Assembly: GCA_903863935.1 (NCBI GenBank)
Contig: CAIPDV010000042.1
Location: 68,869 to 132,868 of the forward strand
Source: an uncultured Bacteroidota bacterium
Lineage (GTDB): Bacteria; Bacteroidota; Bacteroidia; JABEUT01
Direction of reading: 5' to 3'
Length of the DNA stretch: 64,000 nucleotides
Below, piece after piece: positions 5,294-21,823 of the stretch. Both the position numbers and the translations under genes were made by a program. Numbering within the stretch: the stretch's first letter is position 1; the number at the start of each line of letters is the position of its first letter. The notes beneath the pieces were generated by a model. It saw only the letters and a list, made by a program, of their open reading frames with translations. It had not been told where the DNA came from and searched no databases.

Positions 5294-6097
5294 TTATGAA
5301 TTGAAACTTTTTTCTGCAATAATATAAATTCCCATCAACAAAACCATCCAACCGAATATGGGTTTAAGTTTTGTACCGGAAATAAATTTGGAAAGCCATG
5401 AACCAACAAATATCCCTGCCAGGGCAAAGGATGAAAAAAGTGCGAGAAAATTCCAGTTAATTTCTACATGTCCGTAAAGATCGCCGGTAAAACCTATTAA
5501 GGAATTTACGGCGATAATAAACAAAGAAGTTCCAATGGCATTTTTCATAGGTTGGCGGGCAATTACCACCAGTACCGGAATAATTAAAAACCCGCCGCCG
5601 GCTCCTACAAACCCGGCAATAATTCCAACAAGCAATCCTTCAAAAGATATAAGCAGGTTACGGCTATTATCCAGCTCGGTAATTGGTTCCTCTGCGTCTT
5701 TGGGTTTTTGAATCATTTTAACAGCTGAAATGATCATGAGGACCGCGAAAAAAATCATGATGCCTATATCCTTAGTGAATACGAAACTTTTTATCGTGAA
5801 GAGTTCTTTTGGAATGGCAGGGAGAATAAATTTACGTGAGACCAATACGCCCACTACGGAAGGGATTCCAAAAATTAGGGCCATCCTGAAATTGAGCAAT
5901 TTCTTTTTCATGTAACTATAGGAGCCAACTAATGCTGAAATGCCAACAATAAATAAGGAATAGGAAGTAGCGAGCACAGGGGAAATACCCATTAGATAAA
6001 CTAAAATGGGTACCGTTAGAATTGAACCTCCGGCACCAATTAAACCAAGTGAAACTCCAATTAAAATAGCCGTAATATACCCCAGGACTATCATCAT
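5294..6097 (-). CDS. TauE/SafE (DUF81) family sulfite/anion exporter
   Basis: Membrane protein of 8-9 TM segments with duplicated G-x-G-G-G loops (GLIGAGGSILTVP and GFVGAGGGFLIIP). Confidence 0.7.
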   Translation of the reverse strand: MMIVLGYITAILIGVSLGLIGAGGSILTVPILVYLMGISPVLATSYSLFIVGISALVGSYSYMKKKLLNFRMALIFGIPSVVGVLVSRKFILPAIPKELFTIKSFVFTKDIGIMIFFAVLMIISAVKMIQKPKDAEEPITELDNSRNLLISFEGLLVGIIAGFVGAGGGFLIIPVLVVIARQPMKNAIGTSLFIIAVNSLIGFTGDLYGHVEINWNFLALFSSFALAGIFVGSWLSKFISGTKLKPIFGWMVLLMGIYIIAEKSFNS

Positions 6098-6121
6098 GTT
6101 TGCAAAAATAACAATTAAAAA

Positions 6122-7144
6122 TTAGGCTTTCTTAAGCCGCTTCTTAGCTTCTGCAATTGGCTTGAAAGGACCATACTTATGTTGTGCCTCGGGAAAGTTA
6201 TCTATAAAAGGACCGAAGGGATGGTCAACCGGTTTTAAGGAAATATCGGGCCAATCGGAGCTTATATCATGCGTCGGCCTTGGCTGCGAATTAATATAGG
6301 ATGCCACATCCCAGGCTTCCTCATCCGTAAGTTGGGAATTAGGGTAATTGGTGCCATAAGGCATATTGAATTTAGCGTATCCTGCAAGCCGCGAAATCCG
6401 CATCATTCCAGCACCTGCAGTGTAACTATGTTCTCCCCAAAGCGGAGGATATAAATAACCAGTTCGGGCAGGATCTTTCATTCCATCGCCGTTTTTTTCA
6501 TGACAAACGAGACATTTCTGCTCATAGACGAATCTTCCCTTTATGGTATCGGCTGCCCTGTCAAGATATGCCAGTTCCTTTATACCGGAGCCATAGGGCA
6601 CTTTCTTTTTAGGTACATCTTTTCCAACCCACTTAATATAGGCAGTTATGGCTTGCATTTCTTTACTGTTGCTATCTATTGCCTTACCATTCAGGCTGCG
6701 CTGAATGCAATCATTTACCCGTTTGTATATACTTTCAATGGAACCGGAGCGTGCTCGGAATTTGGGATACGTAGAAGCAACGGAAGCATAATTATTTCCA
6801 AAGGGCTTAGTCCCTGCCTGCAGGTGGCAATTCTGGCAATTCATGCCATTGGTAATTTGTGCCACAGTACCTTTTGGGCCAAGGTAATAGGAAGTGTTTG
6901 AAATTAGTTTTTGTCCATAGCGGATAAGGGTTGCATCCGGATTGCCGGAAATGGAAGAAGTGTCTGGGGCATGCCAGATTGAATCAACGGCTACAACAGG
7001 CTTGTTGGCAGCACTATTGCTATTTTGATTGCAGGCGGAAATGATAACTGCAATTATACCAACAAGGCTAAAACATGTAAAAATTAATTTTGATTTCATA
7101 GCAGTCCGGGCCAAAATTTTCAATGAAGTTACAAAGCTATTCAT
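6122..7144 (-). CDS. Diheme c-type cytochrome lipoprotein (TsdA/SoxA/CCP-like)
   Basis: Lipoprotein-like N-terminus (IISACNQ). Two CxxCH motifs (CQNCH, CLVCH) about 100 residues apart. It is the first gene of the minus-strand sulfur operon. Confidence 0.6.
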   Translation of the reverse strand: MNSFVTSLKILARTAMKSKLIFTCFSLVGIIAVIISACNQNSNSAANKPVVAVDSIWHAPDTSSISGNPDATLIRYGQKLISNTSYYLGPKGTVAQITNGMNCQNCHLQAGTKPFGNNYASVASTYPKFRARSGSIESIYKRVNDCIQRSLNGKAIDSNSKEMQAITAYIKWVGKDVPKKKVPYGSGIKELAYLDRAADTIKGRFVYEQKCLVCHEKNGDGMKDPARTGYLYPPLWGEHSYTAGAGMMRISRLAGYAKFNMPYGTNYPNSQLTDEEAWDVASYINSQPRPTHDISSDWPDISLKPVDHPFGPFIDNFPEAQHKYGPFKPIAEAKKRLKKA

Positions 7145-7356
7145 GTTCCTTTAATGTGCATTAAAAAAATGCCTCCACATTCATTTTCAACCCTATTACA
7201 AAAGAAATATGTATCTTGCTAAACAATTAGGCAGTTTAATTAATTCTGTGTGAAATGGTTTGTAAAAGTTTTGAACGTACCCAACCTTTGGAAGTAATAT
7301 ATCGTATCAGTTAACGTTAGGTAGAAGTGTCTATAATAAAATGATGAGGAATATAG

Positions 7357-10300
7357 ATGGAAAATAATTATTCAAATTTGAAATACAGAATAAAAAATAG
7401 GAGGTACATTCTCCTGTTATTTGTCTTAATTACTTTCACTTACAGCAAGAATTTATCCGCCCAAAGTTACTGGATGCAAAAAGGCGGTAGCGGCTCAGCC
7501 GACGAGGGTTACAGTATTTCATTAGATGATAGCGCGAACACCTATACAACGGGATATTTTACCGGCACCGCCACCTTCGGATCATTGAACATAACATGTA
7601 CAGGAGTTTCCGATATCTTCCTTGTTAAAACCAACAGCAGCGGAATTTTCAAATGGGCTGTAAAAGCAGGTGATGGCGGTTCGGACAGAGGCCTTGCCGT
7701 AAAGACCGATAAAAACGGGAATAGTTACCTAACAGGCTATTATTATGGTACGGCAACCTTCGGAACACACACCCTTACCAGCACAGGGTTACAAGATGTA
7801 TTTGTTGCGAAATACGATCGCAATGGAAATGTTTTATGGGTAAGCAGTGCAGGCGGCACCCAATCGGATATTGGTAATGCAATTACCATTGACAACAGCG
7901 GAAACGCTATAATAACAGGGCAATTTGCCGGTAAAGCCACTTTTGGTTCTTATACATTAAACAGCACTGCGAATAATATAAATGTCTTTACTGCTAAGTT
8001 GGATGGCGCTACCGGAAATTTTCTGTGGGCTAAAGGCGGAACCGGACCACATACTGACAGAGGCCTTGGTGTAGCCTGTGATCCTTCGGGAAATGTATAT
8101 GTAACAGGAGAATTTACGGACACCATTACATTCGACAACGTGCATAAAAGCCCGATGTATAATGCAATTTTCCTTATCAAATATAGTAATGCAGGAAACG
8201 AACTTTGGTTTACTGAAGCCGGAGGCGGAACCTACAACATAGCTAATGCCATAGCGGTAGATAATAGTTCAAATATTTACCTCACGGGTAATTTTACAGG
8301 AACGATCACCTTTTTTGCGCAAAGCAATTTTACCCTTACTAACCCCTACCCCAACCGGATTTTTGTTGTGAAGTATGACAATGCTGCAAACTTAATTTGG
8401 GATGTTTCCGATGGTTCAAACAACCCGGTAAGCGCGAACAGCATTAGTTTAGATGCCTCAGGTAATGCCTATATACTGGGCAATTTCGATTGTATTTTTA
8501 ACAGCTACGCTGACCAATACGGCCAAGGCACATTTAATTCTGTAGGCTCACTTGACATATTTGCTGCCGAGTATAGTGGGACTTCAGGCAAATGGCAGTG
8601 GAGCCGACAGATAGGCGGACATGGCAACAACTACGGTTATTCACTTGCCGTATCTGCTGCTGCAGATGTTTATACCGCCGGAAGTTTCGACCAGGATATG
8701 ATCATTACATCGGCGCCTGCGCCAAGCTTTATAGGCTATAATGCAGTTGATACAAAGTATTGCAACAGTACCTATTGCTCAGACCCTAATTACGGTCACT
8801 ATGCGGATTTCAGAACCTATGGTAACCTGGATATCGATATAGCAAAGCCATTTAACCTTGGAAGGCAACCCTACGATTTCTACCTGCGAAATGGTGCAGG
8901 TTGTGACAGGCCCCAGGTAAGTGTTTGCATCAGCACAAGCCTTTCAGGAGCCTGCATGGACACCGCTCAGTTTTGCACAAGCGGTGAGTTGTATGCTATA
9001 ACTAATACATGCTCAACTATCGGACCAAACTTCACCTATCTATGGTCGAATGGTTCCAGGTCGGGTGCAACCAGTGTAAATGTTACAGGATATTATTGGG
9101 TTACTCAAACTTCGGCTGATGGTTGCTTTGTAACCAAGGATACTATTTATGTTATTATCCATCCGCCACCACCCGCTCCATGTATTTCCGATAATGTTGT
9201 TATCAATACTAATTCTACCAATCCGCAGCCAATAAGGTTGTGCGACAAATCGGTTAAACTTACCGGGTGCAATTATGGTAAAGATTCCGCTTATTACTGG
9301 ACGACCCCTAAAATGAAACAGATCGATTCGTTAACTATTACTGTCGGACTTCATTCCGATAGTGGTTACTATTGTTTCAACGTAGTTGATTCGTTTGGTT
9401 GCGTAAATAAAACCTGTGTTTGGGTTGCGATAGACAGCAACCTTTCCAAAATTGTTCCAAAACTAAAATGCCTGACCTGCAAAAATGACACGGCATTCAT
9501 TTGCAAGGGAAGCAGCTTTGTCATGTTCCCATACGATTCAATTACCAACCCATTTGGCAATCCTGCATTATGCATTCCACCGCAATTCGGCACTACCAAC
9601 AAATGGCTGGTTACTCCGAATACAATTGCATATGCCCTGTACACTTATTGTCCTCCGCAAAATTATATGACTCCGTCAGACTCGGGCTGGTATCAGATTA
9701 CCGATTCAATACTACGCCATAACATTTGCGGTAATACCAAGCAAGCCGTTCACGATTCCGTTTATGTTAGATTATATCCACTGCCACCACCAATTTCATT
9801 AACCATTAAAGGTAAATCGCAATTGTGCTCGGGCGATTCCGAATGGGTTTCAGTTTCCGGTTTCAGGCCGTTCAAATGGTCGAACGGCAGCACTATGGAT
9901 AGTATTTTTGTAGGATATGGTACATATTCGGTTTCTGCCAGCGATACAAATCAGTATGGATGTACGACTTCCGGCTTCGCATCTATTAGTATTACGAAAG
10001 CAATTATGACTACTCCGTCTATTTCGTTCTTTCCTTCCAACGGTATCATCTGTCCTGGCGATTCCGTTGAAATAATTGCCACCGGAGGACCCTACCAGGA
10101 ATATAGTTGGTATGGACCAAGCGGACCTATTGCAGCTGACACGAACATTATTTGGGTTAAAAGCCCCGGTAGCTATTATCTTTTCGCATCCGATTCAAAC
10201 CCATGCGGGTTATCAGCCCTCTCAAATACGGTACTGATAGAAGCGTATGCAACTCCCTATATTCAAACGCCGAACACAAATATCTGTCCCGGTGATTCCG

Positions 10301-11436
10301 TTTTAATTTCAGTTGTTGCAACCAACGATGCAGTTATTACATGGCTGCCTCCTTTAAGTGGAAACTCAACAACAAAATATATTGATTCGGCTGGTACCTA
10401 TTCCGTAAAAGTTGTTTCGTGCGGAATTACTACTATATGCACTATAACGATAACAATGTCGCATCCATATGCTATCATTGGTTCAAAGCCTCATACACTA
10501 TGCGCTGGAGGTGACTCCCTTACCCTTACAGGTGATACTGGAATGGCTATTTATAAATGGTTGCCCGGTAATATTTATAGTCAATCACTTATAGTAAAAA
10601 AAGCAGGAACTTATACTTTAATAGCCACCGATGCATTTGGTTGCAGTGCCTCATCAACTATAAAAATAACAGCTCCGCTTAAAGGCTCTATTTCATCATT
10701 TTTGAATAAAAATTGTAATGGCGACAGTAATACCGGAACCATTAAAGTAAGCGTTCTGGGAGGAAGCGGACATTATTCATACGCATGGTCGCCCAATGTT
10801 GGCATCGGTCCAACGGAAACAGGATTGAAAGCAGGTTCTTACACTGTTACTATTACCGATACCAATGGATGTACGGTTGTTGAAACAGATTCCATCCCTT
10901 CTTATATTCTGCCGCAGGCTATAGCAGCTTTCACATTTACACCGGATACGGTAAGCCCGGGACAACTCGTCAACTTTATAAATGATAGTAAGGGCGGAAC
11001 CAGTTATTACTGGACGTTTGGCGATGGTCATTCCACTACCGATTCTTTCCCTTCCTATGCTTATGCAGGTGACGGTAGTTATGTGATAATGCTAATTACA
11101 TATAATGCATGGGGTTGCCCGGACACTACTTATGGTACGATATTTGTGACGGACGGAACTAATTTCCCGAATGTATTTACACCAAACGGAGATGGTCAAA
11201 ATGATATTTTCTATTTTGTAATTAAAGGTGCTAAATGTTTACATGCTAACATTTACAACCGTTGGGGCGTGCTTATTTATGAGATCAATAATTTGCAGGA
11301 TGGGTGGCCGGGAACTATAAGACAGACCGGAATGCCAGCCTCTGATGGAGTATATTATTACATCCTCGATTATTGTGATTGGGATTATGTCCATCACAAA
11401 AGAGACGGATTCTTACAATTGATCCGGAATAAATAA
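7357..11436 (+). CDS. Giant secreted T9SS cargo protein with SBBP beta-propeller repeats, Ig-like/PKD domains and a type-B (CHU_C, gliding-motility-associated) C-terminal domain
   Basis: Signal peptide. At least seven SBBP-type repeats (YTTGYFTGTATFGS...DIFLVKTNSSG pattern). Many Cys-containing Ig-like modules, and a PKD-like YYWTFGDGHSTTD. The C-terminus is PNVFTPNGDGQNDIFYFV...NRWGVLIYEI. Confidence 0.7.
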   Translation: MENNYSNLKYRIKNRRYILLLFVLITFTYSKNLSAQSYWMQKGGSGSADEGYSISLDDSANTYTTGYFTGTATFGSLNITCTGVSDIFLVKTNSSGIFKWAVKAGDGGSDRGLAVKTDKNGNSYLTGYYYGTATFGTHTLTSTGLQDVFVAKYDRNGNVLWVSSAGGTQSDIGNAITIDNSGNAIITGQFAGKATFGSYTLNSTANNINVFTAKLDGATGNFLWAKGGTGPHTDRGLGVACDPSGNVYVTGEFTDTITFDNVHKSPMYNAIFLIKYSNAGNELWFTEAGGGTYNIANAIAVDNSSNIYLTGNFTGTITFFAQSNFTLTNPYPNRIFVVKYDNAANLIWDVSDGSNNPVSANSISLDASGNAYILGNFDCIFNSYADQYGQGTFNSVGSLDIFAAEYSGTSGKWQWSRQIGGHGNNYGYSLAVSAAADVYTAGSFDQDMIITSAPAPSFIGYNAVDTKYCNSTYCSDPNYGHYADFRTYGNLDIDIAKPFNLGRQPYDFYLRNGAGCDRPQVSVCISTSLSGACMDTAQFCTSGELYAITNTCSTIGPNFTYLWSNGSRSGATSVNVTGYYWVTQTSADGCFVTKDTIYVIIHPPPPAPCISDNVVINTNSTNPQPIRLCDKSVKLTGCNYGKDSAYYWTTPKMKQIDSLTITVGLHSDSGYYCFNVVDSFGCVNKTCVWVAIDSNLSKIVPKLKCLTCKNDTAFICKGSSFVMFPYDSITNPFGNPALCIPPQFGTTNKWLVTPNTIAYALYTYCPPQNYMTPSDSGWYQITDSILRHNICGNTKQAVHDSVYVRLYPLPPPISLTIKGKSQLCSGDSEWVSVSGFRPFKWSNGSTMDSIFVGYGTYSVSASDTNQYGCTTSGFASISITKAIMTTPSISFFPSNGIICPGDSVEIIATGGPYQEYSWYGPSGPIAADTNIIWVKSPGSYYLFASDSNPCGLSALSNTVLIEAYATPYIQTPNTNICPGDSVLISVVATNDAVITWLPPLSGNSTTKYIDSAGTYSVKVVSCGITTICTITITMSHPYAIIGSKPHTLCAGGDSLTLTGDTGMAIYKWLPGNIYSQSLIVKKAGTYTLIATDAFGCSASSTIKITAPLKGSISSFLNKNCNGDSNTGTIKVSVLGGSGHYSYAWSPNVGIGPTETGLKAGSYTVTITDTNGCTVVETDSIPSYILPQAIAAFTFTPDTVSPGQLVNFINDSKGGTSYYWTFGDGHSTTDSFPSYAYAGDGSYVIMLITYNAWGCPDTTYGTIFVTDGTNFPNVFTPNGDGQNDIFYFVIKGAKCLHANIYNRWGVLIYEINNLQDGWPGTIRQTGMPASDGVYYYILDYCDWDYVHHKRDGFLQLIRNK

Positions 11437-11496
11437 AATTCCCTCTGATTAGCAGCAGTGTAGTTTTTCCTAACAATAAATGGAGTTTATTTTCGT

Positions 11497-14400
11497 TTGA
11501 GAAAAAAACTTTTCATGAAAAAAATTTACACTCCGTTATTTTTTATTTTTTGTATTGGGTTCATATCCCCTACCCTCCATGCTCAAACAGGCACCTGGAC
11601 AAAGATAACTACCAATGCACCTAACTACAATGAAGGTGTCACCCTTTTGATGACCGATGGTTCTGTGATATGTCATAATTCATCGGGCGGAGGATATGGT
11701 ATTGGATGGGACCGTCTCACTCCGAATGCTTCGGGTAGTTATATAAATGGAACCTGGAGTGCGATTGCACCAATGCTTTATGATGGCCTTTACTTTTCAT
11801 CACAGGTTTTACCAGATGGAAGCGTGTATGTTGCCGGTGGAGAATATGGAGCTGGAGCTACGCATGGAGAAGTGTATAGTCCATTTTCCAATACATGGAC
11901 CAAATGCGATTCCATTCCTTTAGGCTGGAATATTTATGATGGTAATTCCGAAATATTATATGATGGAACCGTTCTGGAAGGTCCGCAGATTGCAAGTTAT
12001 GGAGGCACATTGATATATCATCCCACAACCAATAAATATACGATAGGCCCTTCCGCATTATATGGACATGATGAAGCATCCTGGCTTAAGCTGAGGGATA
12101 GCAGTGTTCTTTTTGTAGGTATTGGCAGCACCTCTTCCAATCGTTATATCCCTCAAACCCAAACCTGGGTAAATGACGGAACTGTTCCGGGTAATTTGTA
12201 CGACAGTTATGGTCTTGAATCCGGTCCGGCATTTCTTTTGCCTAACGGAAAAGCCATATTTTTTGGTGCAACAGGATACAATGCCATTTATACTCCGAGC
12301 GGAAATACTGGTCCAGGAACATGGGCCACTGCCGATAGTTTTCCAATTATTAATGGCGCGCGCACAGGAATGCCCGATGCAGCAGCAGCCATGATGGTGA
12401 ACGGGAAAATTCTATGCGGAGTTTCGCCGGTTCCAACTGCAAGTAACAATGTATGGCGTACTCCTGTTTACTTTGTAGAATACGATTACACTACAAATAC
12501 TTTTGCGCAAGTAACAAGTATTTTTCCGGGGCAGGGTTCCGATTCCCTGAAAGGATATACGAGTTACCAGTTGAATATGCTCGACCTGCCAGATGGTAAT
12601 GTGCTTGTTTCTGTTGCGCAATCGGGAATTTCTAATCAATATTTTATTTATACTCCCGGAAGTGCAGCTATTCCGGAGGGAAAACCAACCATAAATAATA
12701 TTTATCAAACCAGTTGTTACAGTTATAATATTACGGGTAAATTATTTAATGGTATTTCAGAAGGTGCAGGATATGGCGACGATTGGCAATGTGAAACCAA
12801 CTACCCGATTGTCAGGCTAACAAACGGAAGTAATGTGTACTATACACAAACAAGCAAATGGAACAGAATAGGCGCTGTGCAAACCGATAGTTTGGAAGAT
12901 ACGGCTCAATTTACACTACCAATTAACCTTCCTATTGGAACATATTCTCTTGTATTAACGGCCAACGGTTTTGCTTCAAATCCTGTAATCTTTACAACAA
13001 CATATACAAAATTGAATGTTATAGCCATACCTGGCAATGAAAGTTGCATTGGCGGAAGTAATGGCAGCATCCAGGCGACTATTAGCGGAGGAGTTTCACC
13101 TTACACATATTCCTGGTCTACAGGTGCAACTACTTCATCTGTCACAGGACTTACAATAGGGAAATATAAAGTTACAGTAACAGATAAAAATGGATGTACT
13201 GCATCGGATTCTACAACAGTGGGACAACCAAATCCACTAACAGCAAGTGCCTCTGAATTAATTTCTGTTTTATGTAATGGAGGCAGCACTGGCAGCGCAT
13301 CCAGTTCTGTAACAGGTGGAACAAAACCCTATACCTACAATTGGTCAAACGCTATGACAGGAGCAGTTGTTAGCGGATTGAGCGCAGGCATATATTCACT
13401 CACAGTTTCCGATTCGTGTGGAAATACAGCGACAGCAACAGTTAGCATTTCTCAACCTCCTGTTGTATCTATTTCAATCACATCACAAATAAATCCACTT
13501 TGTTATGGTGGAACCGGAAGCGCAACTGCTAGTGCTGCAACAGGCGGAACTCCGATGAATATTATAACAACCATTACAGGAAACGGAACCTTCGGACATA
13601 TTGGAGATGGTGGGCTGGCAACAGCTGCCGAGGTGGCAAACCCATCCGGCGTAGCTGTGGACGCAGCAGGCAATATTTTTATAGCCGACCAGTTTAATAA
13701 TGAAATCCGCAGAATAGATTATTCAACCGGTATAATTACAACTGTTGCGGGAAATTTATCTTATGGCTATAATGGTGATGGAATACAAGCTACTGCCGCT
13801 AGCCTAAACTATCCTGCAGCAGTAGCGGTGGATGCTGCAGGCAATATATTTATTGCTGACGATGCCAATAACAGAATCCGGATGGTGGATCATTCAACAG
13901 GACTAATCAGCACAGTAGCCGGAACAGGTACTGCAGGATATAATTCAGACGGGATACAAGCAACCGCTGCTGAATTATACTATCCAATGTCACTTGCTCT
14001 TGATGCATCGGGCAATATATATATAGCAGACAATTACAACAATAGAATAAGGAAAGTTGACCATTCCACAGGATTGATAAGCACCATTGCTGGGGATGGA
14101 ACAGGAGCTTATAACGGAGACGGAATACTTGCCACTGCCGCTCAAGTAAATGCACCGACTGGTGTTGCACTTGACGCTTCTGCCAATATTTTTATTACTG
14201 ATTATAATAATCAAAGAATACGCGAGATAGACCACCTATCCGGAATTATAACCACGGTAGTAGGAAATGGATCGCTAGGATATAACGGTGACGGAATCCC
14301 CGCTACCGCTGCCGAATTGGCGTTTCCGTATAATACTTCAACGGATGGTCAGAACAATATTTTTATTGCCGATTATGATGGTGATGCTATCCGTAAAGTT

Positions 14401-15198
14401 GACTATTCTTCAGGAATAATAAATGCGGTAGCCGGAAACAGAGCGTATGGATACACCGGTGACGGAGGGCCTGCTACCATTGCCGAATTAGGCCAACCAT
14501 CGGATGTAAAAATTACCCCATCAGGTAATATTATTATAGCCGATAATGGAAATAATGCAATACGTGAAGTAACAAACTATACCTATCTGTGGTCGCCAAT
14601 TGGAGGCACAGGCATGGCAGCAACAGGACTAAGCGCAGGCACCTATACCATCACAGCCACCGATGGAAACGGATGTACGGCCACTGCTTCAGTTACTATT
14701 ACCCAGCCTGCTGTAATGACCATATTGCATGATTCAGTAGCCCAAAGCGGGCCATGCAATGGAATGGCCGGAGTAAACGTAAACGGAGGTTCGGCCCCAT
14801 ATACCTATTTGTGGTCGCCCGGAGGACAAACGAATGATACAATACAAAACCAATGTGCCGGAAGTTATTGCTGCGAAATAACTGACAACAATGGTTGCTC
14901 CCAAACCACATGTGTTACTGTTGTTCTTACAACGACTACAGGACCAGGTGCAATTGTAAATACGGTAAATATTTATCCTGAACCGAACAATGGTAAATTC
15001 ATGATCTCTGGCATTATGCAGGGACAGATTATCGATTTGTATGATTGCTTTGGAAGAAAAATAAAACATGCGGTAGTTGACCGAACAGACAATATTCAAA
15101 TGGATATTTCAACCATGGCTAACGGAATTTATTTTATCAGTATAAAAAATAAGGATGGCAGTATTATTACCCAAAAGAAAATTGTGAAAATGGAGTAA
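11497..15198 (+). CDS. Giant secreted T9SS cargo protein with SprB-type repeats, six NHL repeats and a type-A (Por_Secre_tail) C-terminal domain
   Basis: Signal peptide. SprB-like modules (GGVSPYTYSWSTG..., GGTKPYTYNWSN...). Six NHL repeats (GNIFIADxxNNxIRxxD). C-terminal ...IYPEPNNGKFMISG...IYFISIKNKDGSIITQKKIVKME. Confidence 0.7.
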   Translation: MRKKLFMKKIYTPLFFIFCIGFISPTLHAQTGTWTKITTNAPNYNEGVTLLMTDGSVICHNSSGGGYGIGWDRLTPNASGSYINGTWSAIAPMLYDGLYFSSQVLPDGSVYVAGGEYGAGATHGEVYSPFSNTWTKCDSIPLGWNIYDGNSEILYDGTVLEGPQIASYGGTLIYHPTTNKYTIGPSALYGHDEASWLKLRDSSVLFVGIGSTSSNRYIPQTQTWVNDGTVPGNLYDSYGLESGPAFLLPNGKAIFFGATGYNAIYTPSGNTGPGTWATADSFPIINGARTGMPDAAAAMMVNGKILCGVSPVPTASNNVWRTPVYFVEYDYTTNTFAQVTSIFPGQGSDSLKGYTSYQLNMLDLPDGNVLVSVAQSGISNQYFIYTPGSAAIPEGKPTINNIYQTSCYSYNITGKLFNGISEGAGYGDDWQCETNYPIVRLTNGSNVYYTQTSKWNRIGAVQTDSLEDTAQFTLPINLPIGTYSLVLTANGFASNPVIFTTTYTKLNVIAIPGNESCIGGSNGSIQATISGGVSPYTYSWSTGATTSSVTGLTIGKYKVTVTDKNGCTASDSTTVGQPNPLTASASELISVLCNGGSTGSASSSVTGGTKPYTYNWSNAMTGAVVSGLSAGIYSLTVSDSCGNTATATVSISQPPVVSISITSQINPLCYGGTGSATASAATGGTPMNIITTITGNGTFGHIGDGGLATAAEVANPSGVAVDAAGNIFIADQFNNEIRRIDYSTGIITTVAGNLSYGYNGDGIQATAASLNYPAAVAVDAAGNIFIADDANNRIRMVDHSTGLISTVAGTGTAGYNSDGIQATAAELYYPMSLALDASGNIYIADNYNNRIRKVDHSTGLISTIAGDGTGAYNGDGILATAAQVNAPTGVALDASANIFITDYNNQRIREIDHLSGIITTVVGNGSLGYNGDGIPATAAELAFPYNTSTDGQNNIFIADYDGDAIRKVDYSSGIINAVAGNRAYGYTGDGGPATIAELGQPSDVKITPSGNIIIADNGNNAIREVTNYTYLWSPIGGTGMAATGLSAGTYTITATDGNGCTATASVTITQPAVMTILHDSVAQSGPCNGMAGVNVNGGSAPYTYLWSPGGQTNDTIQNQCAGSYCCEITDNNGCSQTTCVTVVLTTTTGPGAIVNTVNIYPEPNNGKFMISGIMQGQIIDLYDCFGRKIKHAVVDRTDNIQMDISTMANGIYFISIKNKDGSIITQKKIVKME

Positions 15199-15305
15199 CG
15201 TATATTCTTACAAACTTACTATGCTAAACTCTAAAAATAAAAATGTGTTTTGATTTTATAGTGTCAGACCAAACCTAAAAAAAGACTATTAAAATTATTC
15301 GGAGC

Positions 15306-15566
15306 TTATTTAGATTCGGCTAATAGCCTTACCCCAGGGTTATTTACCAAATTGACAGAGATAATATCAGCCATGTATTTACCTGCATTTGTCATTTGCT
15401 TATCAATGTCTGTAATATACAGAACGACTATCTTTTTCTTGTTAAGAGTTTGAAGTTTTTGAGAAAGGTCTGCACTTATTGCTGTTAATGCCTTATCAAA
15501 TTCGCTTTGAGAAATACAAGCGAATGACAATGAGAAGAAATAAATTAGAGCAATAATCCTTTTCAT
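15306..15566 (-). CDS. Small secreted protein (86 aa), co-oriented 15 bp downstream of the HEPN-like membrane protein gene
   Basis: N-terminal signal peptide (MKRIIALIYFFSLSFACISQS). No recognisable family. Confidence 0.4.
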   Translation of the reverse strand: MKRIIALIYFFSLSFACISQSEFDKALTAISADLSQKLQTLNKKKIVVLYITDIDKQMTNAGKYMADIISVNLVNNPGVRLLAESK

Positions 15567-15580
15567 AGCTGCAAATTTAA

Positions 15581-16951
15581 TTAAAGAGATGAATGCTGGT
15601 CTCCATATATTATAAGAAGTTTCTGTAAAGCTGTTTCCTTAGCATCTGATTCAGTAACGTCATTTCCGATAGCTGAAATTTCAAAACTTTTAGAAATGGA
15701 TTTAGTAGAGGTTGATATAATGCTCATTGAAAGGGTGGCAGTGCAAATAATAGTACCCGAAGCTAATGTACCAGGGGTATATTTGTATTTGAGTTTTCCT
15801 ACAACCATATTCTTAGTGTAGTCGCTTAACTTTAATTTATCTATGATGTCAGAATTGCCCTCAAACAAGTCCTGAAACCCAGGTTTACTAGCAAAAATAC
15901 TTTTCAGCAACCCAAAGTTTGCATTTTCCCCCGATTTACTGTAAATACCCGCAATAGAGTTTGATAAATTATTCTCGATGCTCCCACCATCCTCAAATAT
16001 CGTTACCGATACATCAACTTTGCCTGAAGAGCTTGTTAAAGAGGAATTTATATAGGAACTATAATCTGTCTGCTCTGCCATTTTACCTGTATTATTCCCT
16101 GATTTAACTGTATTTGTGCCGCCAGAATGGGTCTTGACGGGACCGTGTCCTGGAGGGGGTGGTGGTGGTGGACCTATAATAATTATTTTTGGTGGTAATT
16201 TTGAACTAAACAATTGCTTCCATGGAACAAATTTATAACAAAGCCCAAAAACCAAAAGGGAAATTATAACCCAAAAAATTACTCTTGCTATCTTTGACCC
16301 CAAAAATCCAGATTTAACACTTACAGGTGATTCATTACTATTTTTTTTATTGGAATGATTTGAAAATATTTCTTTTAAAGTTACTCTCTCCTTTATATTA
16401 TTAAGTGAGTTTAGTAATTTAGTATCGTCAATTGCTTTTGCAATGCGACCCATATTATTCCACAATGCGACAATATCCTCTTCCTTCAAATAATCAGAAT
16501 TGAAATGGGCTACAGTATTCCTGACATAGGTAATTTCGCCAAGCCATGCGGGAAGGTTCATAGCTTGTTCATTGAAGTAAGGCCAAAACAGATTTTTATT
16601 GTACTCCGCAAATCCTTCAAAATATTGATAATCCAGAAGATCAGTATGTACTTTATTCGTATGCTTATTTATATCTTTAATCCACTTTTTCTGTAAATAA
16701 TCATTATTTTCATTCTTATCATAAAGAGCTTTCCTGAAATCGGGTTCCCATTTATCTGTATTTTTTGAGTGAAGGAGTTTATCTATAATAAATTCACCAA
16801 AAGATTTACGAAATATCTTCAGCGCACCGTAGACATCCTTTTCAAGGTCGGTCATACCTTCCTCTACAGGCTCATGTTCGTTAATTTCTTCGTCCATTTT
16901 AATATACCTTTTATCAAAGGTAATTTGGTTGGCTACTTGCAAAAATAGCAA
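15581..16951 (-). CDS. Membrane-anchored protein with an N-terminal HEPN-like (RNxxxH) domain, one TM helix, a poly-Pro linker and a C-terminal Ser/Thr-rich domain
   Basis: The motif YVRNTVAHF matches the Rx4-6H (RNxxxH) HEPN RNase signature, in an N-terminal domain of about 200 aa. TM helix VIFWVIISLLVFGLCY. Linker IIIGPPPPPPPGHGP. C-terminal domain of about 230 aa is rich in S/T/G/N. The true start is probably the internal ATG (MDEEINEHE, about 16897), because the ORF-track start sits 19 bp from the divergent gene start. Confidence 0.45.
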   Translation of the reverse strand: MLFLQVANQITFDKRYIKMDEEINEHEPVEEGMTDLEKDVYGALKIFRKSFGEFIIDKLLHSKNTDKWEPDFRKALYDKNENNDYLQKKWIKDINKHTNKVHTDLLDYQYFEGFAEYNKNLFWPYFNEQAMNLPAWLGEITYVRNTVAHFNSDYLKEEDIVALWNNMGRIAKAIDDTKLLNSLNNIKERVTLKEIFSNHSNKKNSNESPVSVKSGFLGSKIARVIFWVIISLLVFGLCYKFVPWKQLFSSKLPPKIIIIGPPPPPPPGHGPVKTHSGGTNTVKSGNNTGKMAEQTDYSSYINSSLTSSSGKVDVSVTIFEDGGSIENNLSNSIAGIYSKSGENANFGLLKSIFASKPGFQDLFEGNSDIIDKLKLSDYTKNMVVGKLKYKYTPGTLASGTIICTATLSMSIISTSTKSISKSFEISAIGNDVTESDAKETALQKLLIIYGDQHSSL

Positions 16952-16970
16952 ATTACATTATGCTTATTAA

Positions 16971-17336
16971 ATGACCATTGAACAAAACCCAAATGTATTT
17001 AATATGGAGGTTTTCAAGAAAGACTTAGAGTTAGGAGTTGAGGAATATGCCAAGTTTACTTCTTCGCGTCGCCGTTCGCATAGTTGGGATGAGAAGCCAA
17101 ATGATGAATCCGAGAATAGAATGGCAACTGAAAATAAAACCAAATTCGAAGAAATATCTAAAATGGTAATCAATGCATTAAAACAGAGTAAAAATAAGGA
17201 AGGCGTGCTTGAAGCGACTCATCTGGCTTTCTATGAAATTAATATGGAATATTACAGATATGGCGATAATCGTCCTATTATTTCACCTGAACAAGAAGCA
17301 ATCTTTTTTAGAGATATTATAGTAAAGTTATTTTAG
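16971..17336 (+). CDS. Hypothetical acidic cytoplasmic protein (121 aa), divergent from the HEPN-like gene
   Basis: ORF followed at +8 nt by a perfect 10-bp-stem hairpin. No recognisable motifs. Confidence 0.35.
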   Translation: MTIEQNPNVFNMEVFKKDLELGVEEYAKFTSSRRRSHSWDEKPNDESENRMATENKTKFEEISKMVINALKQSKNKEGVLEATHLAFYEINMEYYRYGDNRPIISPEQEAIFFRDIIVKLF

Positions 17337-17343
17337 AAAGAAG

Positions 17344-17365
17344 ATACCTATTAAATAATAGGTAT
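17344..17365 (+). terminator. Perfect hairpin ATACCTATTA-aa-TAATAGGTAT immediately after the 16971..17336 ORF stop
   Basis: The 10-bp inverted repeat with a 2-nt spacer is seen directly. The downstream tract is A/T-rich but not a clean U-run. Confidence 0.3.
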
Positions 17366-17826
17366 AGTTATAATATAAGTTGGTACTTATTAAATCCTGT
17401 GAGATATTTATAGAAGTTCCCAGCAGTTTGCACACTTGCTGCTTGCTATTTGGAACATCTACAAAACCTTCAACTATCTGCGTTTCCAATTTCTTTTAAA
17501 TTTAAACCTTGCAGACAAACCGTTTCGTTAAATCTTAATATAAGGAACAAAATAAACCCCTGCAAGCATTAAGCCATGCAGGGGCGTGTGGGGTTGGCTT
17601 CCCTAAAAAAGGAAAATTAACCCCCCGTAAATGCCATCTAAACTCCGAACGGTTTTGGAGTCAATATTAAATCTCGCTTAAAACAACTTGGGGGATTTGT
17701 CAAAAAAGTGCTTTAGTTTTTAAAACCGCACCCCAAAGCGCACCCCGACCGCACTCGACCTTTTTAGGGCTTTCCGCTTAATGAAAAAAGAGCCTAAAAT
17801 CGGCTCATTTTCAAACTCTTATTCAG

Positions 17827-17899
17827 TGATCCCGATGGGGCTCGAACCCATGACCCCAACATTAAAAGTGTTGTGCTCTACCAACTGAGCTACGGAATC
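17827..17899 (-). tRNA. tRNA-Lys (anticodon TTT)
   Basis: The reverse complement reads GATTCCGTAGCTCAGTTGGTAGAGCACAACACTTTTAATGTTGGGGTCATGGGTTCGAGCCCCATCGGGATCA. It has a 7-bp acceptor stem (one G-U pair), the D-loop AGCTCAGTTGGTAGAGC, the anticodon loop CTTTTAA and a GGTTCGAGCCC T-arm. CCA is not encoded. Confidence 0.85.
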
Positions 17900-17925
17900 A
17901 ACAATGTTTTCCTTAAAAAGGTGCG

Positions 17926-17933
17926 CAAAGATA
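17926..17933 (-). promoter_or_regulatory. Candidate -7 box TATCTTTG about 27 nt upstream of the tRNA-Lys 5' end
   Basis: The reverse complement of caaagata matches the Bacteroidota TAnnTTTG consensus. Confidence 0.3.
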
Positions 17934-18169
17934 ATAGAATTTAATATGACAAAACCCTTATGGGGAATATTTAAATCCTTAAACCCTAAATAACTTTATA
18001 ATCAAAAGGATATCAATCCTTTTTAAGTGTGGTTATTGTTGGAGATATTACCGGATTTTCACATTTAGAGCATGCAGCCTTCTCTTTATGGCTAATTGTC
18101 TTATATATTTTCCAACCCGCATATACCAATGCCAAAGCAAAAATAATATATACAAGTATGGTTTGCATC

Positions 18170-19489
18170 TTAGCTTACAGCTTTAACTACACCGAATTTT
18201 TTTTGCAAAGCTTCAGTTGTCATTGAGCCCGGACGTTCAATTGGGAACCCAAGGACCCTATCCCAGATAAGTGAAGCGAGCACTCCAAGAGATCGTGAAA
18301 CACCGAATAAAACAGTATAGAAATCATTTTCAACAATACCAAAATGGGTGAGCAAAACACCAGAATGCGCATCCACATTAGGCCAAGGGTTTTTTATTTT
18401 CCCTGTTGACTGTAATATAGGTGGGGCTACTTCATATATCATCTGTACTATTTCGCAAAGGTCGTCATGCTTGATATATCGCTTGTAAAAATCTTGCTGG
18501 GCAAGAAAACGAGGGTCCGTTTTACGCAATACGGCATGTCCGTATCCAGGAACCACACGGCCTTCCGCCAATGTCTTTTTTATATAATCTGCAATTTGCT
18601 CTTTAGTAGGTAATCCTCCGCCTAATTCACGCTTCAGTTCCATAATCCATGATAGAACTTCCTGATTTGCCAACCCATGTAAAGGACCCGCAAGGCCATT
18701 CATTCCTGCTGCAAAACTAAGATAAGGATCGCTTAAAGCAGAGCCAACAAGGTGGGTTGTATGAGCAGATACGTTTCCTCCTTCATGATCGACATGAATT
18801 GTTAGATATAGTCGCATAAGGCGTTTCACATCAAACAAATCATATCCCATCATGTGGGCCAGGTTTGCTGCCCAGTCCAGTTTTGGGTCTGGTTCAATAT
18901 GTTCGTTATTCTTATATTTTCTGCGGTATATATACGCTGCAAGTCTTGGCAGGCGTGCAATCAGGTTCATAGAATCTTCGTAAACATAATCCCAATAATC
19001 CTTTTTGTTAATCCCTTTTTTGTAGGCGGCAGCAAATAATGATTCTGTTTGCATTGCCATAGCTCCTATGCTGAATTCAGTCATGGGGTGGGTATTGGCA
19101 GGAAGAGAATCTAAGGTATCGAATACATGGCGTGGCACGATGCTTCTGCGTGCCCAATTATTGGTAATATCATCAACATCTTCCTGAGAAGGAAGTTCGC
19201 CCATTAGCATGAGATAGAAAATACCTTCGGGCAAAGGTTCAGTACCATTGGGGGCTTTTGGAAGTTTTTCCCGTAGCTCCGGAATGGTGTATCCACGGAA
19301 GCGTATACCTTCTTCAGGATCGAGTTTAGAAGTTTCAGTTATCAAACCAACCATTCCGCGCATACCCTGGTATACCTGAGCAACATTATACTCCCCCAGT
19401 TTTTGTTCGCCATATTGGGCAATGAACTGTTTTACATTATCTGCTTCAACTGTTGCTTTTTTTAAGAACTTCTCTTTTAGCCTGTCCAT
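18170..19489 (-). CDS. gltA: Citrate synthase
   Basis: 439 aa. Signature HVDHEGGNVSAHT and other conserved citrate synthase segments (GYGHAVLRKTDPR). Confidence 0.9.
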   Translation of the reverse strand: MDRLKEKFLKKATVEADNVKQFIAQYGEQKLGEYNVAQVYQGMRGMVGLITETSKLDPEEGIRFRGYTIPELREKLPKAPNGTEPLPEGIFYLMLMGELPSQEDVDDITNNWARRSIVPRHVFDTLDSLPANTHPMTEFSIGAMAMQTESLFAAAYKKGINKKDYWDYVYEDSMNLIARLPRLAAYIYRRKYKNNEHIEPDPKLDWAANLAHMMGYDLFDVKRLMRLYLTIHVDHEGGNVSAHTTHLVGSALSDPYLSFAAGMNGLAGPLHGLANQEVLSWIMELKRELGGGLPTKEQIADYIKKTLAEGRVVPGYGHAVLRKTDPRFLAQQDFYKRYIKHDDLCEIVQMIYEVAPPILQSTGKIKNPWPNVDAHSGVLLTHFGIVENDFYTVLFGVSRSLGVLASLIWDRVLGFPIERPGSMTTEALQKKFGVVKAVS

Positions 19490-19513
19490 GATAATTTTAG
19501 TGATATATTAATT

Positions 19514-20866
<1,353 letters not shown>

Positions 20867-20902
20867 CTAATAAATATCTCCAAACTACATGACAAAAATC
20901 AG

Positions 20903-21823
20903 CTATGCATTCTCCTTAAGTTGCCTGTCAACAATTGCGAGTCCTTCTACGAATGAATGTGGCTCGTAACCAAGATCCTTACGGGCCTTATCAAGAATAA
21001 ATCCGGTTTTTAAGGGACGTTGAGCGGGTTGACCTAATGTAGCGGTTTTTGAAGGGTGAATTAAGGCTTTATTAAATTTCCAATAGTCAGCCACCACGTT
21101 AACCAATTCAATTATGCTCATAAAATCTTTGCCTGAAATGTGGTATACGCCTGTTGCACCTTTAAATGCGGCCAGAATACAGCCTTCTGCAAGATCTTCG
21201 GCTAATGTAGGCGTGCGGAATTGGTCATCTACCACATTAATATCTTTCCCTTTTGAAAGTGCATCTTTTGCCCATAAAACAATATTGCTACGGCTCATAA
21301 AATCCACCACTCCATAAACAAGAATAGTTCTTATTATAGTCCATTTCAAGCCTGACTTTTCCACTAATTTTTCCGATACATATTTTGATTCGGCATAAAC
21401 TGAGTTGGGCGGATACGGGATATCTGTTTCCCTGTATGGTCCATGGTTTCCGTCGAAAATAAAATCGGTAGAAAGATGTATCAAATGCCCTTGTACCGGA
21501 AGTTCTTTCATAGTATTTATGAGGTATTCCACTGCATCTACATTCAATTTGCGGCATGCTTCTCGCTCCGTTTCGCAGGCATCCACATTGGTCATAGCGG
21601 CTGTATTTATTACCACATCAGGAACATATTTCGACAAAACATCTTTTACAGACTTTTCATCTGTAATATCCATTGGAGCATATTGATAGCCGGCCTGTAC
21701 TTTAAGCCTGTTAGCACCTTTTGAAGTAGCTATCACTTCAACATTTGACTCCTTAATTAGTCTGTAAACAAGCTTTTGACCCAGAAGCCCATTTGAACCT
21801 GTGATTAATATTTTTTTCTTCAT
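20903..21823 (-). CDS. SDR-family NAD(P)-dependent epimerase/reductase (RmlD-like dTDP-4-dehydrorhamnose reductase family)
   Basis: N-terminal Rossmann motif ILITGSNGLLGQKL, a YAESK catalytic motif, 306 aa. Confidence 0.55.
   Translation of the reverse strand: MKKKILITGSNGLLGQKLVYRLIKESNVEVIATSKGANRLKVQAGYQYAPMDITDEKSVKDVLSKYVPDVVINTAAMTNVDACETEREACRKLNVDAVEYLINTMKELPVQGHLIHLSTDFIFDGNHGPYRETDIPYPPNSVYAESKYVSEKLVEKSGLKWTIIRTILVYGVVDFMSRSNIVLWAKDALSKGKDINVVDDQFRTPTLAEDLAEGCILAAFKGATGVYHISGKDFMSIIELVNVVADYWKFNKALIHPSKTATLGQPAQRPLKTGFILDKARKDLGYEPHSFVEGLAIVDRQLKENA

Follow-up and report, generated by a model that had tools for sequence, protein, structure and literature searches.

The question raised by this locus is whether a small gene cassette beside a tRNA-Lys gene, in the 64,000-nucleotide stretch analyzed here (the window; contig CAIPDV010000042.1 of an uncultured Bacteroidota bacterium), encodes a sensor outside the inner membrane that is coupled to a ribonuclease inside the cell. 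The cassette comprises a gene for a predicted single-pass membrane protein, the remains of a gene for a secreted partner, and a divergent gene for a small protein. Our results suggest that it is probably, although far from certainly, a decayed copy of an unnamed three-part module of the Fibrobacteres-Chlorobi-Bacteroidetes (FCB) group, which would span the envelope and act as an abortive-infection-like sensor-effector. A first-pass annotation of the bare sequence had proposed a sensor joined through one transmembrane (TM) helix to a HEPN effector; this idea was partly supported, namely by the predicted topology, the HEPN evidence and the swapping of cytoplasmic domains (heads) among homologues, but the cassette itself is probably incomplete. 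Its three open reading frames (ORFs) were found in the ORF list where they had been placed, at 15581-16951 (-), 15306-15566 (-), and 16971-17336 (+), and its parts are as follows.

15581..16897, minus strand: gene for the 438-aa inner-membrane protein (ORF list; homologues aligned from Met19 of the 456-aa call; AlphaFold2 (AF2) model)
16337..16897, minus strand: residues 1-187, all-helical N-terminal domain, predicted to be cytoplasmic (Pfam matches, model)
16505..16522, minus strand: residues 126-131, RNTVAH, an Rx4H motif of the HEPN catalytic type (7-sequence alignment)
16232..16300, minus strand: residues ~200-222, predicted single TM helix (AF2 helix, hydropathy scan)
16070..16231, minus strand: residues 223-276, disordered Pro/Gly/Ser/Thr/Asn-rich linker including PPPPPPPGHGP (predicted local distance difference test score, pLDDT, <50)
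15584..16069, minus strand: residues 277-438, alpha/beta C-terminal domain (C-domain), predicted to be periplasmic (pLDDT ~90; Foldseek)
15306..15566, minus strand: 5' stump of a gene for a secreted CsgG/FlgO-like partner, the 86-aa ORF (identity to L002:3374-4282)
16971..17336, plus strand: divergent gene for a 121-aa cytoplasmic protein, specific to the HEPN variant (homologues at the same position)

The membrane protein had been described as 456 aa long, and public gene callers also begin this product at the TTG at 16951. However, all homologues align from the Met encoded by the ATG at 16897, and 42 nt before this ATG, within the TTG extension, there is a -7-type box of Bacteroidota (TATTTTTG), so the ATG is the likely start and the protein was taken as 438 aa. 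In the AF2 model of this protein, which was built from a 13-sequence alignment, the single TM helix and the poly-proline linker noted previously were both recovered, with a helix at residues 200-222 and PPPPPPPGHGP after it. Pro, Gly, Ser, Thr, and Asn make up 54% of the linker, and the distance from the TM helix to the C-domain has a median of 60 aa across the family (interquartile range 50-73). A hydropathy scan found one TM helix in each HEPN and TIR form of the family, and the bias of Lys and Arg in the flanks indicated an N-in/C-out orientation in 6 of the 7 HEPN forms and 11 of the 13 TIR forms, and the opposite orientation in none. A cytoplasmic N-terminal domain and an extracytoplasmic C-domain are thus supported by sequence-based prediction, in agreement with the first-pass annotation. 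The outer part had also been regarded as a low-complexity, Ser/Thr-rich domain of ~230 aa; this description applies only to residues ~223-276, which are disordered, whereas residues 277-438 are folded and conserved.

It is this C-domain that characterizes the family. It forms a compact alpha/beta domain in the AF2 model (pLDDT ~90) and is conserved more strongly than any other part of the protein, 19 columns being invariant among 13 homologues. Searches of the PDB with Foldseek returned HpaA, CsgG, Cj1090c, CT253, LptE, GNA1162, FlgT, and PelC with E-values of 1.6e-4 to 1e-2 and a probability of 1.0, and template modelling scores (to target) reached 0.58. The CsgG/PelC/LptE/HpaA fold of the C-domain is therefore confidently modelled. 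No Pfam or NCBIfam family matched the domain. It does not belong to the CsgG family proper (PF03783), to which it had no profile match, and it lacks an N-terminal lipoprotein anchor, the anchoring being provided by the internal TM helix and the linker instead of a lipid. Comparison with the family of the secreted partner by hhalign gave a probability of 0.1%, that is, no sequence relationship. Proteins of the CsgG/PelC-type fold are periplasmic lipoproteins located under or in the outer membrane, and several of the fold neighbours form rings of 9 to 12 subunits according to their PDB titles (CsgG a 9-mer, PelC a 12-mer).

The HEPN nature of the N-terminal domain had been proposed from an exact RNxxxH motif, which is present as RNTVAH at 16505-16522. 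Taken alone, such a motif is at chance level (1 observed vs 0.75 expected in the long ORFs of the window), but it is meaningful here because it is invariant in seven divergent homologues and is accompanied by HEPN profile matches. The HEPN-type set (n=7) consisted of the window protein and 6 further proteins with the same N-terminal domain, obtained by an exhaustive profile search. R126 and H131, whose conservation had been in question, are invariant in all seven aligned members at 20-53% identity, and the motif takes the form R-[N/H]-x3-H in each. Pfam HEPN_Swt1 matched the window domain over profile positions 2-115 of 115 with an E-value of 1.1e-5 and 26.1 bits, 1.4 bits under the gathering score of 27.5. 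A HEPN family was the top Pfam match in every member of the set, namely HEPN_Swt1 in six (27.3, 26.2, 26.1, 23.9, 23.4, and 15.4 bits) and HEPN_Apea in P0003, and weak matches to Abi_2, AbiD, Cas13a, and PADLOC PDC-M34B all fell on the same stretch of the window protein. The domain is all-helical in the AF2 model. In the PDB, sequence and profile searches produced nothing beyond noise (RRP6 and RGS2, for example). The word-index search with the N-terminal domain alone or with the 7-sequence alignment gave no match and missed even the query's own entry, which was taken as a limit of the index. The earlier proposal thus stands as regards profile similarity and motif invariance, but the profile scores are below threshold and Foldseek returned no HEPN fold. 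The domain is most probably a HEPN domain of the Abi2/Swt1 clade by its sequence, and it is a probable, putative HEPN RNase.

The second component was surveyed in 20 loci with hidden Markov models (HMMs) for the C-domain and the downstream gene. A gene for a partner of ~300 aa adjoins the C-domain gene in all 20; in 19 it lies directly downstream in the same direction, and in one it is convergent. The survey shows that the partner is an obligate part of the C-domain module. Its signal peptide shows no conserved lipobox Cys and is followed by a CsgG/FlgO/LpoB-like N-terminal domain and a C-terminal part rich in Cys. Full-length partners matched Pfam CsgG with 37.2 bits (cut-off 20.8); FlgO was also matched, and NCBIfam LpoB weakly. 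Tandem copies, two or three, are present at some loci. In the window, the corresponding ORF had been described as a small secreted partner of 86 aa, but it is actually the 5' stump of a ~300-aa gene, covering positions 1-79 of 304 in the partner HMM. Its codons 1-79 (15330-15566) are 78-80% identical at the amino acid level and ~82% identical at the nucleotide level to the 302-aa partner at L002:3374-4282, and they are followed by 7 unrelated codons and a stop. The homology breaks sharply at ~15330, and partner residues 80-302 (~220 codons) are absent from the whole window. The partner gene has been deleted after codon 79 and is a truncated remnant. The 456-aa and 86-aa products annotated in the window are therefore mis-called.

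A possible second case of a shortened partner was seen beside P0008. In the NCBI metagenome-assembled genome (MAG), the partner at L004:8895-9695 begins at profile position 49, 169 bp past the C-domain gene, whereas JGI contigs with an identical P0008 carry a full-length partner 11 bp downstream (L005:924-1847). The short form in L004 is either a second instance of partner decay or an assembly error.

The distribution of the C-domain and its heads bears most directly on the function of the module. A word-indexed search found 13 relatives of the window protein, and an exhaustive HMM search from their alignment extended these to 483 clusters (50% identity) at E <= 1e-3, 205 of them at E <= 1e-10. 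The best 157 of the 483 clusters were examined for their heads by clustering of the N-terminal regions and Pfam scans. About 100 are short forms, in which a signal-anchor-like TM segment is followed by the linker and the C-domain, and 52 are long forms. The head is of a multi-TM type in 15 clusters, TIR in 13, HEPN in 7, Trypsin_2 in 2, and DUF4062 in 1, and several unassigned types make up the remaining long forms. This census shows that TIR, HEPN, and protease heads interchange on one periplasmic scaffold, as one would expect if the head is an effector. The family is also rare: in a scan of 185,579 species-representative genomes, one per species, only 8 loci were found, all in FCB-group MAGs assigned to Bacteroidia, Saprospiraceae, Lentimicrobiaceae, Ignavibacteriota, and Chloroherpeton. 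PADLOC-DB v2 holds no model that matched the C-domain, the partner, or the small protein, and gave only weak matches to the heads (PDC-M34B at 0.0027 and AbiD at 0.0023; PDC-S66 and ThsB for the TIR head of P0004).

Two further arrangements were observed in the family. Short members are often preceded by a gene for a Band_7/SPFH-like protein of ~300 aa with two TM segments, which abuts the C-domain gene or overlaps it by 4 bp (L004:7029-7997, L010:7104-7997, L012:2900-3793, L016:5099-5995); in the headless variants, this protein might serve as effector or scaffold. In the Saprospiraceae UBA2365/UBA9002 loci (L018:2317-4982 and L019:1795-9251), the CsgG-like partner is present in three tandem copies, and several upstream paralogues have an N-terminal module of the P0013 type, 'MQDKSNY..ALQNYINA..KKKWLxKYSEAEG', in common with the C-domain protein, while their C-termini differ.

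The third component, the divergent gene upstream, also varies in a regular way. In each of the 5 HEPN-type loci with available DNA, a homologue of the 121-aa protein (115-125 aa) is encoded at the corresponding position. In the two TIR-type loci examined, a different conserved protein is encoded there, of 223 and 169 aa with 39% mutual identity (E 7e-39); these proteins (L009:568-1239 and L102:1845-2354) are likewise divergent, are unrelated to the HEPN-linked family, and have no Pfam match. The upstream gene thus switches together with the head, whereas neither the periplasmic domain nor the partner changes. The 121-aa protein itself matched nothing in Pfam, NCBIfam, or PADLOC, and no MNT or other antitoxin signature was found in it. 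It had been called acidic; the divergent gene was confirmed, but its product is only mildly so (isoelectric point 5.3). It is a candidate inhibitor, antitoxin, or regulator. Among the related loci, the HEPN-linked small protein at L100:1991-2365 has a weak match to DUF5677 (E 0.0022), and a 491-aa DUF5677 protein (E 1.7e-16) is encoded right after the partner gene in a multi-TM-type locus (L007:10446-11921). These matches could reflect a distant kinship between cognate proteins.

The surroundings of the cassette contain the following additional features.

15199..15329: junction between the truncated partner and the end of the type IX secretion system (T9SS) cargo gene, without homology to partner genes
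16898..16970: putative divergent promoter region, 73 bp (by the known Bacteroidota consensus)
17826..17899, minus strand: tRNA-Lys(UUU) (synteny with the closest relative stops at the tRNA 3' end)

The tRNA-Lys beside the cassette was confirmed, and the giant T9SS gene reported on the other side is a SprB/Por_Secre_tail cargo gene whose stop lies at 15198. The proposal that the tRNA-Lys is an insertion hotspot found partial support. The closest relative found was L020 (citrate synthase 91% identical). It retains the enolase, the citrate synthase, the FeoB-associated gene, and the tRNA-Lys, and its homology to the window ends precisely at the 3' end of this tRNA. Next come a tRNA-Ser and a gene for a large serine recombinase of 570 aa (Resolvase, Recombinase, Zn_ribbon_recom; L020:11591-13718), and within 10 kb there is no cassette. 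A variable region next to this tRNA, as anticipated in the first-pass annotation, is thus present in relatives, and because the homology ends at the tRNA and a recombinase occupies the site in L020, the site is variable and used by mobile DNA. The GC content of the cassette is also deviant (0.32-0.35 vs 0.40-0.45 in both flanks). However, no integrase and no att-like direct repeat were found in 15199-17825. The intergenic region 16898-16970 contains the motif TTTTTGCAAGTA, which is also present in L002, and Bacteroidota -7-like TAnnTTTG boxes.

A defence-island setting, which had likewise been suggested, applies to part of the family. Within a few kb of the modules, L005 and L006 carry Pycsar cyclases with PycTM and Mrr_cat, L007 carries TIR_2, DUF2971, DUF5677, and an MmeI-type restriction-modification gene, and L010 carries SLFN/AlbA_2, but L002, L003, and the window have no obvious neighbours of this kind. 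Swapping of heads, cognate genes that go with the head, a sporadic distribution, low GC, and a partial link to defence islands make up a pattern known from conflict and immunity systems.

Based on these features, we infer that the intact module functions as an envelope-coupled sensor-effector with three parts. The first would be an inner-membrane protein with a swappable cytoplasmic head, one TM helix, a flexible linker of ~60 aa and a periplasmic CsgG/PelC-fold domain; the second would be one to three secreted CsgG/FlgO/LpoB-like partners encoded directly downstream; and the third would be a cytoplasmic protein, transcribed divergently and particular to the type of head. Together with the partner, the periplasmic domain may build or join an oligomeric assembly beneath the outer membrane, like the rings of CsgG and PelC, a suggestion based solely on the structural neighbours of the fold. 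This assembly would be disturbed when the envelope is damaged or a phage enters, and the clustering of the TM-tethered heads would change. Clustering would activate them, since HEPN domains need dimerization and TIR domains need higher-order assembly, and the resulting cleavage of RNA (HEPN) or breakdown of NAD+ (TIR) would stop growth. The small upstream protein may restrain the HEPN head. The ring assembly, the trigger, the activation by clustering, and the inhibitory role of the 121-aa protein are all predicted steps. In the window, the HEPN gene and the small gene are both intact, and the module is probably non-functional or orphaned because the partner is deleted after codon 79. A wider proposal, which we regard as tentative and as having somewhat less than an even chance of being right, is that the C-domain family represents an unrecognized class of envelope-spanning immune receptors, so far confined to the FCB group, in which a periplasmic module, made up of the TM-tethered domain and its secreted partners, would watch the outer envelope and switch on interchangeable death effectors (TIR NADase, HEPN RNase, protease, or membrane domain) by induced oligomerization, each effector having its cognate inhibitor.

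Membrane-tethered HEPN proteins and envelope-sensing defence are already known as concepts. Anantharaman, Makarova, Burroughs, Koonin & Aravind (2013; PMC3710099) suggested that membrane-associated HEPN proteins degrade RNA in response to surface stimuli, and grouped them as WP-signature TM proteins with DUF4145, alpha-domain-TM-HEPN proteins, and HEPN-2TM-Zn-ribbon proteins. The window protein resembles these in having a putative Abi2/Swt1-type cytoplasmic HEPN domain tethered to the inner membrane and a putative external sensing part, but it differs from all three groups in its HEPN-TM-linker-CsgG/PelC-fold order, its obligate secreted CsgG-like partner, and the interchange of its head with TIR and protease domains. 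The Zorya system (ZorAB with ZorC/D) comprises a 5:2 ion-driven motor, a peptidoglycan-binding domain and separate soluble effectors, and the envelope-anchored complex, which has a periplasmic domain, is proposed to detect invading phage and relay the signal to a cytoplasmic nuclease (PMC11946911). The envelope-anchored sensing that may be passed to a cytoplasmic nuclease here is analogous in function alone; here sensor and effector are fused, and there is no homology to any Zorya component. The C-domain shares its modelled fold with the lipoproteins CsgG, PelC, LptE, HpaA, GNA1162, FlgT-FlgO, and LpoB, and the partners match CsgG and FlgO; however, the C-domain has no sequence match to these proteins and is anchored by a TM helix plus linker, and the partners have an extra Cys-rich C-terminal domain. 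Likewise, the RNxxxH motif is common to HEPN-MNT systems and AbiD/AbiF (Abi_2), with weak profile similarity to Abi_2, AbiD, and HEPN_Swt1, but the module has no MNT partner, it has a membrane anchor and a periplasmic domain, and the family of its small cognate protein carries no annotation. No description of the module was found in Pfam, NCBIfam, PADLOC v2, or the searchable literature (CsgG/FlgO with TIR, HEPN, or defence; PDC-M34).

Several results weigh against an immune sensor-effector. The HEPN profile scores all lie just below the Pfam gathering score, Foldseek with the N-terminal model recovered no HEPN fold, and that model was built from 3 sequences, with 1 of 5 models confident. Roughly two in three family members (~100 of the best 157 clusters) have no enzymatic head, and the ancestral role of the family may therefore be structural. 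Searches of plasmids, phages, and IMG/VR contigs turned up no family copies, neither the C-domain nor the partner has a PADLOC model, three loci including the window have no obvious defence-island neighbours, and no literature or experimental link between the C-domain family and phage defence was found. In addition, if the partner were an inhibitor, its loss would be toxic, which favours a dead module or a different logic.

There are rival explanations. The module might be a housekeeping or structural envelope complex, such as a periplasmic tether or a secretion accessory, with the heads as regulatory add-ons and not suicide effectors. The structural neighbours of the C-domain are all envelope assembly or secretion lipoproteins, which agrees with this, as do the many headless clusters and the loci that adjoin T9SS cargo, glycosyltransferase or two-component genes instead of defence genes. 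On the other hand, swapping among TIR, HEPN, and trypsin-like heads together with a head-specific cognate gene is typical of conflict systems, the family is rare and patchy, the cassette has low GC at a variable site, and Pycsar, restriction-modification and TIR genes adjoin several loci. We consider a structural complex rather unlikely. A membrane-localized toxin-antitoxin pair of a HEPN toxin and the 121-aa protein, in which nothing is sensed in the periplasm and the C-domain and partner serve localization or stability, would explain why the small protein is strictly tied to the HEPN head and another protein to the TIR head, and why the HEPN and small genes are intact here despite the truncated partner. 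HEPN toxins with cognate antitoxins are also well known (Anantharaman et al., 2013; PMC3710099). However, neither an MNT nor any other antitoxin signature is seen in the small protein, the two genes are divergent and not co-transcribed, and the periplasmic module and the partner are far more conserved and constant than the heads, which is hard to explain if they are incidental. Such a pair is unlikely. Two related candidates were rejected: a HEPN-MNT toxin-antitoxin pair, as there is no nucleotidyltransferase, and a polymorphic secreted toxin, as the variable domain is N-terminal and cytoplasmic and has no secretion signal.

The first-pass annotation had offered an RsgI/anti-sigma-like protein as its alternative, that is, a transmembrane protein controlling a sigma factor. 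A single-pass N-in protein with an extracytoplasmic domain does resemble anti-sigma factors, and a sigma54-dependent activator lies next door at two HEPN-type loci. Nevertheless, no extracytoplasmic function (ECF) or other sigma factor gene was present in any locus with a gene table, Pfam scans of the 438-aa protein and family members revealed no anti-sigma domain, TIR, HEPN, and protease heads are not sigma-binding domains, and the sigma54 activator is missing from the window, L003, and L101. The anti-sigma alternative is therefore very improbable.

The sigma54-dependent AAA+ activators are encoded beside the small divergent gene in 2 of the 5 HEPN-type loci (L002:133-1569 and L100:567-1982), are 471-478 aa long and mutually 45% identical, and have an N-terminal region of ~170 aa that is not a receiver domain; in the L100 copy this region weakly matches the CARF-like N-domain of RtcR (PF06956, E 0.0058). 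Damage to RNA is what RtcR responds to, and RNA cut by HEPN RNases ends in a 2',3'-cyclic phosphate, so a functional link between the activator and the HEPN RNase is conceivable.

Most characterized defence systems sense phage components in the cytoplasm. To our knowledge, few sense envelope events, Zorya being the main known case. If the sensor-effector reading is true, the module would be a compact form of outside-in immune signalling in bacteria, with a periplasmic domain related to ring-forming secretion lipoproteins connected by a single TM helix to TIR or HEPN heads, and natural head-swap variants with head-specific cognate proteins are available within the family. It would also assign a function to a domain family that lacks annotation, and to many Bacteroidota genes whose only label is CsgG-like. 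The interest lies in the family rather than in the decayed copy of the window, which is incomplete and whose products were mis-called.

Positions 5581-21814 of the window are 100% identical to the ENA metagenome scaffold L001, in which the gene calls for the cassette are 456, 86, and 121 aa. On the side opposite the tRNA, two giant T9SS cargo genes occupy 7357-15198, coding for proteins of 1359 aa (SprB, PKD, CHU_C) and 1233 aa (SprB, NHL, Por_Secre_tail), and the distance from the partner truncation junction to the stop codon of the second is 131 bp. An Rfam scan around the cassette gave the tRNA as the sole match, and scanning for sigma-70 promoters and terminators yielded no more than background, as is to be expected in Bacteroidota. 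A 490-bp non-coding spacer (17337-17825), with no Rfam match and no homology to L020, separates the 121-aa gene from the tRNA-Lys. It contains a terminator-like hairpin at ~17557-17584 on the minus strand, with an 8-bp G+C-rich stem, CCCCTGCA...TGCAGGGG, followed by TTTATTTTG on the same strand; its 12-nt loop was missed by the terminator scan.

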